From Chlamydiia bacterium (GTDB taxonomy: Bacteria > Chlamydiota > Chlamydiia > Chlamydiales > Rhabdochlamydiaceae): a stretch of DNA of 64,000 nucleotides. Below are positions 4,967 through 6,306 of the stretch, piece after piece. The position numbers and the translations under genes are program-made. Positions within the stretch are counted from its first letter, which is position 1. The number at the start of each line of letters is the position of its first letter. Under the pieces are notes generated by a model. That model did not search any database, was not told the DNA's origin, and saw only the letters and a program-made list of their open reading frames with translations. The stretch is taken from NCBI GenBank assembly GCA_963804085.1, contig CAWDOQ010000015.1:53881-117880 (forward strand). Reading direction: 5' to 3'.

Positions 4967-6028
4967 ATGACAACCCCTGTAACAATCACTCCAAAAAATG
5001 GAGCTCAGTCCCCTCTAGCGGCAAGAGGTCTCAATGCAAAAGAACAAAAAAGGGCTGGAGATCCCACTAGTGCCCAGAGCGCGTCAACATTAACATCTGC
5101 TGCCCCTTATGCAGAGCTCTCCTGCTTCGAGTGGGTTTATACAACTATATGTACTTGGGTAAGCATGATTACAGATTGGATGAGTTCCTGGTTCTCGCCT
5201 ACTGAAGAGAGCCTATCTGCTAAAAGAAGAGAGTATCGTAAAGAGATCTGGCAACAGACAGAAAGTACCGCAAAAGAGCTCTGCCTTCCTAACATCGAAT
5301 ACTCTGTAAGCCAATCCTACAAGTGGGCGCTTGATGCAACTCAACCTATAAAATCCAGAAAGGGAGCTCACAAGACTAAAGTGGTGATCTCCCAAGAAGA
5401 CCTTCTCGACATGGCCTTTCATGCACAAAAAGCAGGAGGCTGCTCAGTTATGGCTTTAAATGCCGGCAACCCAAAAGTGCCAGGAGGAGGCTATAAAGAA
5501 GGGATGCGCGGAAGAGAAGAGGAGATCATGCGCAGAACCACCCTTGCGTTTGTTTTGGATGAGTCCTTAGGCTACTCAAAAATCAAGTATCCGCTTGCTG
5601 AAAACGAAGGAATTTACGCCAAAGGTGTGCTCATTCTACGCGCTCAAAAGCAATATCAGTATGCGTATTTAGACACAGCAAACGTCGGTTTTGCAACCGT
5701 TGCCCCTCTCGAGAAGCCTCATAGAGAGATAGACGCGCATGGGCAGATGAACTTAAACAAAGACGATCTGGAGACTACGCGGAATAAAATACGCCTTCAA
5801 TTTCGCCTAGCCAAAAAAGAGAAGCACGATCTTTTAGTGCTCGGTGCTTTTGGCGGAGACTTTGCAACAAAAGAGATCGCAAAGCTCTACAAAGAGGTGT
5901 TAGAAAAAGAGTTTCGCGGCTGTTTTAAAACTGTTGTTTTTGCTATTCGCGACGAAGTGGAGCGCCAAGTGTACGAAGAGACCTTCCAGCAGAAGCACAC
6001 CACGCTAAAAGAAGCCCTATCCAGATAA
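4967..6028 (+). CDS. Microbial PARG-like macrodomain protein (TIGR02452/DUF2263-like) with N-terminal extension
   Basis: LNAGNPKVPGGGYKEGMRGREEE resembles GGG-X7-QEE. Also LVLGAFG and FKTVVFAI. Confidence 0.75.
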   Translation: MTTPVTITPKNGAQSPLAARGLNAKEQKRAGDPTSAQSASTLTSAAPYAELSCFEWVYTTICTWVSMITDWMSSWFSPTEESLSAKRREYRKEIWQQTESTAKELCLPNIEYSVSQSYKWALDATQPIKSRKGAHKTKVVISQEDLLDMAFHAQKAGGCSVMALNAGNPKVPGGGYKEGMRGREEEIMRRTTLAFVLDESLGYSKIKYPLAENEGIYAKGVLILRAQKQYQYAYLDTANVGFATVAPLEKPHREIDAHGQMNLNKDDLETTRNKIRLQFRLAKKEKHDLLVLGAFGGDFATKEIAKLYKEVLEKEFRGCFKTVVFAIRDEVERQVYEETFQQKHTTLKEALSR

Positions 6029-6271
6029 AAAAAAACCCTCCAGTTTATATTCATCGACCTATCCGCATAGATCTGATGACTGGAAGGTAGGAAGTCATTT
6101 TTTTCTCAGGCTATTGGATGAAAAGCTGCTAATGAAGCACGGCTAATCGTCTCATGCCTCTCTGAGAGGCTTTGGTACCCTGAGAACTCCTTGGCATATA
6201 TTGAGCGACAGTGGAGAGAACTCTCTACCAATCACCGCCACCCGAGGTTTCGCCTTGGAAAATGACCTCTT
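6027..6271 (-). ncRNA. Candidate structured non-coding RNA, family unknown
   Basis: Nested helices, most of whose G-U pairs work on the minus strand. Extended -10 TGcTATATT upstream; 3' hairpin plus U-tract; no convincing ORF. Confidence 0.55.
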
Positions 6272-6277
6272 ATCTTT

Positions 6278-6306
6278 AATATAGCAATTAACCATTAATT
6301 ATTAAA
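6278..6306 (-). promoter_or_regulatory. Promoter candidate for the ncRNA
   Basis: TTTAAT-N17-TATATT with a TGn extended -10 on the minus strand. Confidence 0.45.

Follow-up and report, generated by a model that had tools for sequence, protein, structure and literature searches.

A single-copy gene for a structured, expressed small RNA with a conserved three-way junction in Rhabdochlamydiaceae and allied chlamydial families

A 64,000-nucleotide stretch of DNA (the window) from a Chlamydiia bacterium of the Rhabdochlamydiaceae (GenBank assembly GCA_963804085.1, contig CAWDOQ010000015.1, positions 53,881 to 117,880) was examined around a segment for which a reading of the sequence alone had proposed a novel structured non-coding RNA (ncRNA) of about 245 nucleotides (nt). 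Positions 6271-6027 of the minus strand are almost certainly an independent, single-copy gene for an ncRNA of ~245 nt that is genuine, structured and expressed. The proposal was upheld by the lack of any Rfam match, by covarying homologues in the Chlamydiota and by a discrete piece in RNA libraries (6035-6254) that appears without the flanking genes. Searched against Rfam 15, 6S RNA included, the whole window gave 0 families at gathering score, as did 11 related loci. At E ≤ 10, the region 5900-6500 returned a single chance match, to a small nucleolar RNA (snoRNA) model at 16 bits (gathering score 47) in the AT-rich promoter region, and 6S RNA (RF00013) had no match at this threshold anywhere in the window's genome. 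Genes for signal recognition particle (SRP) RNA, ribonuclease P (RNase P) RNA and transfer-messenger RNA (tmRNA) lie elsewhere in the same genome, in line with the earlier judgement that the segment is none of these three. A literature search, thin on subscription journals, found no description of the RNA. It belongs to a new family, outside Rfam 15 and not described in the literature searched.

The best conserved part of the molecule is the three-way junction, for which covariance models were built from 6 sequences (R1, 27 pairs), 51 sequences (R2) and 61 sequences (R3). The consensus runs in the order P1, GGUACCA plus 2-3 nt, P2 (CCUCU-NAN-AGAGG), a short linker, P3, a strand ending in AG, P1' and AAAA, with P3 an interrupted long hairpin capped by a 4-bp stem that covaries and by the loop UCAU(U/G). 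In the 61-sequence alignment, which was fitted to the model and so favours the structure, changes on both sides were found in 24 of the 27 modelled pairs (279 such cells), and 54 distinct sequences gave a similar outcome. Paired cells made up 88.9% of the alignment's total, compared with 71.4% in shuffles (0/500 as high) and 34-51% when the partners were slid by 1-3 columns. These slid-partner controls and an independent RNAalifold run on MAFFT alignments agree with the modelled structure. The branched domain closed by UUCUCAGG and CCUGAGAA, one of the elements picked out by the sequence-only reading, is backed both by the minimum-energy fold and by these double changes. GGUACCA, CCUCU-NAN-AGAGG and UCAU(U/G) are nearly invariant and the surrounding helices covary; invariant bases concentrate at the junction, and the apical pairs of P2 are U-A in 61/61, C-G in 61/61 and U-A in 56/61 sequences. 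Core length ranges from 72 to 94 nt and splits 20/22/19 modulo 3, which rules out a conserved reading frame.

The fold of the whole molecule was assessed on 254 nt (6280-6027), with 200 dinucleotide shuffles as the control. The minus strand reached a minimum free energy of -91.5 kcal/mol against -65.3 +/- 4.3 kcal/mol for the shuffles (z = -6.08, 0/200 as low), and the plus strand folded more weakly (-80.9 kcal/mol, z = -4.17). Closing helix, branched domain and terminal hairpin are all included in the minimum-energy fold, and the predicted molecule is Y-shaped, with an 11-bp helix that would join the ends and enclose the 5' arm and the three-way junction. That closing helix (6269-6259 with 6101-6091), also seen by eye beforehand, is predicted for every sequence of an alignment (A8) of seven, namely the window RNA and six genomes of genus g14, the nearest in architecture; four of its 11 pairs have changed on both sides, for example from U-A to C-G. 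In family f27 its role is taken by GUGAGGGGUA/UACCCCUCAC or GAGGGAGCUGC/GGCGGCUUCCUC, and the U run comes directly after, so that the end-joining helix would itself be the terminator. The 5' arm is the most variable part, from ~40 to >200 nt long and differing in length and sequence between genera; the hairpin motif at its tip was found again in genus g14. Past the core, relatives have a conserved linker (CAAAC...) and then a C/U-rich ACCUUCC that opens the terminator stem. As a separate observation, AGAGG-like purine strands and CCUCU/CCUUCC-like pyrimidine strands build four helices of the RNA (6267-6036) and its homologues, at the 5' end, the 5'-arm tip, P2 and the terminator, and in several genera the 5' end and the 3' strand of the terminator are, by eye, near-copies. 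These recurring motifs could permit alternative pairings.

Expression was traced in public RNA libraries. A word-index search with window positions 5400-7000 found 18 metatranscriptome runs from 15 studies, each holding 5-9% of the sampled words of this 1.6-kb stretch. Contig mapping covered four of the 18 runs, each from a different study (two of soil, one of freshwater and one of peat), and every time the contigs spanned 6035-6254 alone, with zero depth over 5400-5993 and 6264-7000; the pieces included 6043-6239 (197 nt, one difference), 6114-6254 and 6080-6219, the last two ending in adapter-like letters. The silence of the flanks in the same runs argues against DNA carry-over. The RNA is expressed and is abundant relative to the neighbouring genes. 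In three runs (X1, X5 and X7), other contigs matched 6157-6191 alone and then diverged, and the reverse complement of one loose end resembles the P3 consensus of the relatives. This suggests that the diverging contigs are RNAs of the same family from other species, expressed in the soil and peat samples.

The gene signals are those of a separate transcription unit. The spacer between TTTAAT and TATATT is 17 nt, and a G+C-richer segment follows, as had been read from the sequence before; it begins ~7 nt past the -10 element. A consensus promoter scanner also called a promoter with the TG extension, pairing TATATT with TTAATA (6305-6300) at a spacing of 16 instead of with TTTAAT. Of 56 distinct homologues checked by regular expression, 41 carry the pattern TGnTAnnnT upstream of the core; one of the 15 without it had just 39 nt of upstream sequence to inspect. 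A run of at least five T follows within 170 nt past the core in 56 of 60 listed homologues. The loci of relatives share one layout: TGnTATATT or TGnTAAATT comes first, then a start rich in purines (AAAGAUAGAGGG) and a 5' part that varies, and the conserved block is followed by a hairpin with its U run. In the window the RNA gene sits between convergent genes, downstream of a same-strand methyltransferase gene, and in relatives the next gene downstream is likewise convergent. No gene on the same strand follows the RNA, here or in relatives, which fits the earlier opinion that a riboswitch is unlikely. The conserved extended -10 element upstream, the T run downstream and the convergent next gene together argue for an independent gene. 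We infer the transcription start, and also the strand, the latter from the orientation of the putative promoter and terminator.

A blastn search of 41 related genomes with a 284-nt stretch gave matches in five genomes from other genera of the family, each ~90 nt long (query 119-215); blastn finds the core alone because the 5' arm and the terminator are too variable for a sequence search. Model R1 reached much further, matching 101 of 129 Rhabdochlamydiaceae genomes (63 of the 77 with a completeness of 90% or more) in 32 of 40 genera, with a single copy in 100 of the 101 positive genomes. The sole genome with two copies has them on the same strand ~650 nt apart (G117:C1:24599-24685 and 25252-25338, 66 and 70 bits), and a pattern scan found the same tandem pair of cores on one public contig (L060/L061). 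The RNA is present in at least four further chlamydial families. With the widened models all four genomes of family f10 and all four of f27 were positive, as were six genomes of f43 (E 5e-7 to 1.4e-4 with R3); in a sample of the phylum f43 scored 13/17 and f1 20/22, and f47 has one reduced copy of ~130-150 nt, located by synteny (L156, genome G174). None was found in the phylum sample for f35, which includes the genus Chlamydia (0/27), f31 (0/17) or f5 (0/19), and five Chlamydia-type genomes, recognized by a full-length MOMP, had no R2 match below E 0.79 and no R3 match at E ≤ 1. As the phylum results are samples searched with short models, they are to be read as 'not found' rather than 'absent'. 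Public contigs bearing the motif (44 loci) are labelled Rhabdochlamydiaceae, Chlamydiales or Chlamydiae, apart from a few evidently mislabelled bins. Weak matches of R2 and R3 in f32 (L053 and L123) and at L171-L178 were rejected as false, as they fall in coding-like sequence that lacks a promoter and a terminator; L170 (f33) counts at most as a possible homologue, and f29 gave a 53-nt partial model match.

As to function, we lean towards a stable RNA that acts in trans and whose invariant junction would bind a cellular partner. A promoter of the sigma-70/sigma-66 type with an extended -10 element would start transcription, and the long hairpin with U9 would stop it. The product would be an abundant, nuclease-protected RNA acting in trans and not on a neighbouring gene. 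A conserved cellular partner, most likely a protein, would dock on the invariant junction, and the RNA would act by binding or sequestering it. A shape recognized by a partner in trans is suggested by the protected ends, the fast-evolving arm and the slowly evolving junction with its fixed bases and fixed stem. Because three pairs of P2 hardly change while neighbouring pairs covary, the conservation points to partner binding beyond mere structure.

Several points weigh against this picture or parts of it. The junction partner and its binding are putative, and the unpaired GGUACCA, UCAUU and CAAAC linker could equally be seeds for pairing with mRNAs. The assembled Logan contigs reveal neither the strand, the exact ends nor the level of the RNA. 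G-U cells outnumber A-C cells (96 versus 59; 88.9% versus 86.5% paired), which barely favours the minus strand, so that the G-U pairs from which the sequence-only reading had argued discriminate the strand weakly. Of the terminator that it proposed, the 52-nt hairpin and U9 are there, but the consensus scanner, which did find the promoter, called no terminator at the locus, since its rule requires a loop of 3-8 nt, unlike the long imperfect hairpin here. By eye, several genera seem to form a local hairpin at the 5' end instead of the closing helix (L166 and L049), and cognate duplexes of 5' and 3' ends are about as stable as non-cognate ones (-12.4 versus -11.5 kcal/mol); given the local hairpins and the lack of a cognate energy advantage, we regard the closing helix as common but not universal. 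Pairings inside the 5' arm are unsupported. Relatives align poorly there and the minimum-energy fold pairs the arm differently from the AGG-CGAAA-CCU hairpin and the exact long-arm pairings first proposed, which are putative; among 27 loci from a metagenome pattern scan, none was near enough to the window's genome for checking the arm. Finally, 28 of the 129 family genomes had no R1 match, some of them >90% complete, and either the RNA is not universal in the family or it is too diverged in those genomes.

The leading competitor, which we think unlikely, is a base-pairing regulatory small RNA (sRNA) whose GGUACCA, UCAUU and A-rich/CAAAC linker would base-pair to mRNAs, altering their translation or stability, with the body serving only for stability. 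The RNA's own promoter, its putative terminator and the intergenic position would suit this reading, the unpaired motifs are short and invariant, the complement of UCAUU contains AUG, and the abundance is compatible with either model. What speaks for a partner instead is that conservation lies largely in covarying helices and in the fixed-sequence P2, a pattern that suits a recognized three-dimensional shape better than a seed, and that the motifs are short, a 5-nt loop and the palindromic GGUACC. A functional counterpart of 6S RNA, binding the RNA polymerase holoenzyme and tuning transcription globally, for example in the developmental cycle, would be a special case of partner binding, and we hold it to be rather improbable. 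In its favour, 6S is the one common housekeeping RNA that is undetectable in the window's genome or in the order (above cut-off in 0/150 genomes, with one weak match, the same search being positive in 4 control genomes), so that with SRP, RNase P and tmRNA all present a 6S-type function is an unfilled housekeeping role, and size, paired ends, single copy and abundance would fit. Against it, the new RNA has no similarity to RF00013 or other Rfam models, and the covariation supports a three-way junction within a Y-shaped molecule, unlike the rod of 6S RNA with its large central bubble.

Descent from the ltuB-3' RNA of Chlamydia (ctrR0332/CPn0332), as a very diverged homologue, is still less probable. 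The two share a similar overall design, both being ~240 nt and abundant (for ctrR0332, according to PMC2817459 and PMC3333780), and their distributions are complementary in the genomes searched. Yet neither R2 nor R3 matched at the ltuB loci with filters off, nor, at the thresholds given above, in the five whole Chlamydia genomes; the order of the junction arms is reversed, the new RNA has its own promoter, and one LtuB query found no ltuB in the window's genome. That there is no RNA gene at all, and the segment is instead a small protein gene, a cis-acting leader or riboswitch, a neighbour's 3' untranslated region (UTR) or terminator, or a repeat or mobile element, is very hard to sustain. 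The minus strand does hold open reading frames (ORFs) of 47 (6152-6295) and 41 (6106-6231) amino acids (aa), and the convergent gene ends right at the A9/U9 tract. However, the start of the 47-aa ORF precedes the predicted transcription start, the core changes length without keeping a frame, and substitutions track base pairs. Nor does any same-strand gene lie downstream; the RNA contigs end before the upstream gene, and one copy per genome in a conserved neighbourhood is unlike a repeat. A bolder version of partner binding, which we consider doubtful, would make the RNA a global regulator of developmental 'state' in Rhabdochlamydiaceae and allied families, as a non-homologous replacement of 6S RNA or a counterpart of ctrR0332. 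Present in very large amounts, it would shut down transcription or translation by tying up RNA polymerase or ribosomal subunits, through the invariant junction and the AGAGG and CCUCU/CCUUCC motifs, which resemble Shine-Dalgarno and anti-Shine-Dalgarno sequences. Overall, a trans-acting RNA with a partner-binding junction remains the reading we prefer.

Table 1. Positions of the RNA, its parts, its gene signals and the adjoining genes in the window, with the ltuB-3' RNA loci used for comparison.
Feature	Position	Strand	Basis
Predicted RNA, ~245 nt	6271-6027	minus	Fold and RNA-library contigs; start near 6271-6270 from -10 spacing (predicted), end within U run
-35-like hexamer TTTAAT, weak	6306-6301	minus	Sequence; no obvious conservation among relatives
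Extended -10 element TGcTATATT (TG 6286-6285, TATATT 6283-6278)	6286-6278	minus	Sequence and promoter scan
Closing helix, 5' strand GAGGUCAUUUU	6269-6259	minus	Sequence, fold, covariation
Variable 5' arm, long irregular hairpin, tip GAGAG-UU-CUCUC	6258-6187	minus	Minimum-energy fold alone
Three-way junction, ~90 nt	6186-6103	minus	Covariance models R1-R3, covariation
P1, 8 bp, UUCUCAGG with CCUGAGAA	6186-6179 with 6110-6103	minus	Sequence, fold, models
Junction strand G-GUACCA-AAG	6178-6170	minus	Models
P2, CCUCU-CAG-AGAGG	6169-6157	minus	Models
P3, long hairpin, apical loop UCAUU	6153-6113	minus	Models
Closing helix, 3' strand AAAAUGACUUC	6101-6091	minus	Sequence, fold, covariation
Putative terminator hairpin of 52 nt; CCUUCCAG pairs with CUGGAGGG, plus more pairs inside	6087-6036	minus	Fold
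U9 tract	6035-6027	minus	Sequence; overlaps last 2 nt of plus-strand ORF ending at 6028
Upstream gene, 221 aa, class I / DOT1-like methyltransferase	6408-7073	minus	Pfam
Convergent ORF, 353 aa, microbial-type poly(ADP-ribose) glycohydrolase (PARG) catalytic domain	4967-6028	plus	Pfam, E 3e-13
ltuB-3' RNA, L134	8739-8990	plus	
ltuB-3' RNA, L135	3488-3750	minus	
ltuB-3' RNA, L136	5704-5963	minus	
ltuB-3' RNA, L137	9442-9706	plus	
ltuB-3' RNA, L138	9047-9308	plus	

The usual gene order in many carriers is ispG upstream on the same strand, the RNA, and then a convergent gene that we take to be rarA-like from its C-terminal motif and AAA-type sequence. The neighbours in the window's own genome differ, being the methyltransferase gene upstream and the PARG-type gene downstream. 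The methyltransferase matches the Pfam family of DOT1, a eukaryotic histone methyltransferase, at E 5e-9 and above cut-off, beside generic class I families; a DOT1-like enzyme of an intracellular bacterium could be a host-directed effector. A synteny search anchored on ispG covered 30 genomes of other families, 24 of them with an ispG match, and among these 24 loci the sole homologue at the expected place was the reduced one of family f47 (L156), where an ORF of ~60 aa (MSSEVSGAGG...) lies between ispG and the RNA. At L151 (G146, family f19), ispG directly abuts the convergent rarA-like gene, with almost no spacer and no RNA between them, and that lineage has apparently lost or relocated the RNA gene. 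In Chlamydia, a different gene follows ispG. Elsewhere in the window's genome, two sites gave identical weak scores with the tmRNA model (24.7 bits, below cut-off, at G000:C1:6272-6361 and G000:C3:7004-7093), the true tmRNA being on C16; they may represent a duplicated tRNA-like element.

Chlamydiae have no recognizable 6S RNA, and very few regulatory RNAs are known from them. The only chlamydial RNA of comparable abundance, ctrR0332, has been without a function since 2009-2011 and was thought confined to Chlamydia. The new RNA is a second, independent entry to RNA-based control in the phylum, shared among several chlamydial families, environmental as well as associated with arthropods or protists, and its covariance model is ready for annotating their genomes. 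Because the RNA is visible even where the organism's mRNAs are not, it is also a possible marker for active Rhabdochlamydiaceae in metatranscriptomes.

Among known systems, 6S RNA resembles the new RNA in being single-copy, abundant, ~150-250 nt long, paired at its ends and transcribed from its own unit. Membership of the 6S family was rejected, as RF00013 does not match and the predicted shape here is a Y with a three-way junction, in contrast to the rod with a large central bubble. IhtA, likewise a chlamydial small RNA, belongs to the genus Chlamydia, acts by base pairing and is shorter than the new RNA; the locus of the new RNA has no Rfam match, with no search directed at IhtA itself. According to two reports, IhtA is trans-encoded and represses hctA (PMC2817459, PMC3333780).

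The closest likeness in design is ctrR0332/CPn0332. In the same two reports, this ~240-nt RNA is co-transcribed with ltuB and processed, accounts for 20% of the non-rRNA reads in reticulate bodies and 78% in elementary bodies, and was assayed against sigma-28 and ribosomes only, with no function assigned (PMC2817459, PMC3333780). We located the ltuB-3' RNA in five Chlamydia-type genomes, beside a 96-97-aa ORF two genes from folD. The consensus fold of the five loci has 67 pairs, of which 17 have changed on both sides. It comprises a closing helix with a purine-rich 5' strand and a C/U-rich 3' strand, a three-way junction with a hairpin, a linker and a strong terminator. No Rfam family matched at the two loci searched (L134 and L136), and this RNA would merit a curated model of its own. 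Homology with the new RNA was not detectable by R2 or R3 with filters off at the five Chlamydia loci, and one LtuB query found nothing in the window's genome. Both RNAs are ~240 nt long, abundant, outside Rfam and restricted to chlamydiae, with closed ends and several inner hairpins that include a three-way junction; both would end at a strong terminator, which in the new RNA is putative. They differ in the order of the short and long junction arms, which is reversed, and in their expression, ctrR0332 being co-transcribed with ltuB whereas the new RNA has a conserved promoter of its own behind a methyltransferase or ispG gene; in the genomes searched they occur in different families. Parallels in kind are orphan structured RNAs of bacteria discovered through genome comparison, such as the raiA-motif and OLE RNAs, which are likewise defined by strong covariation, conserved junction nucleotides and lineage restriction. 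The new RNA differs from them in that no Rfam family matches it and in being confined to chlamydiae with a fold of its own, and it is of a familiar general kind, a lineage-restricted, abundant and structured small RNA.

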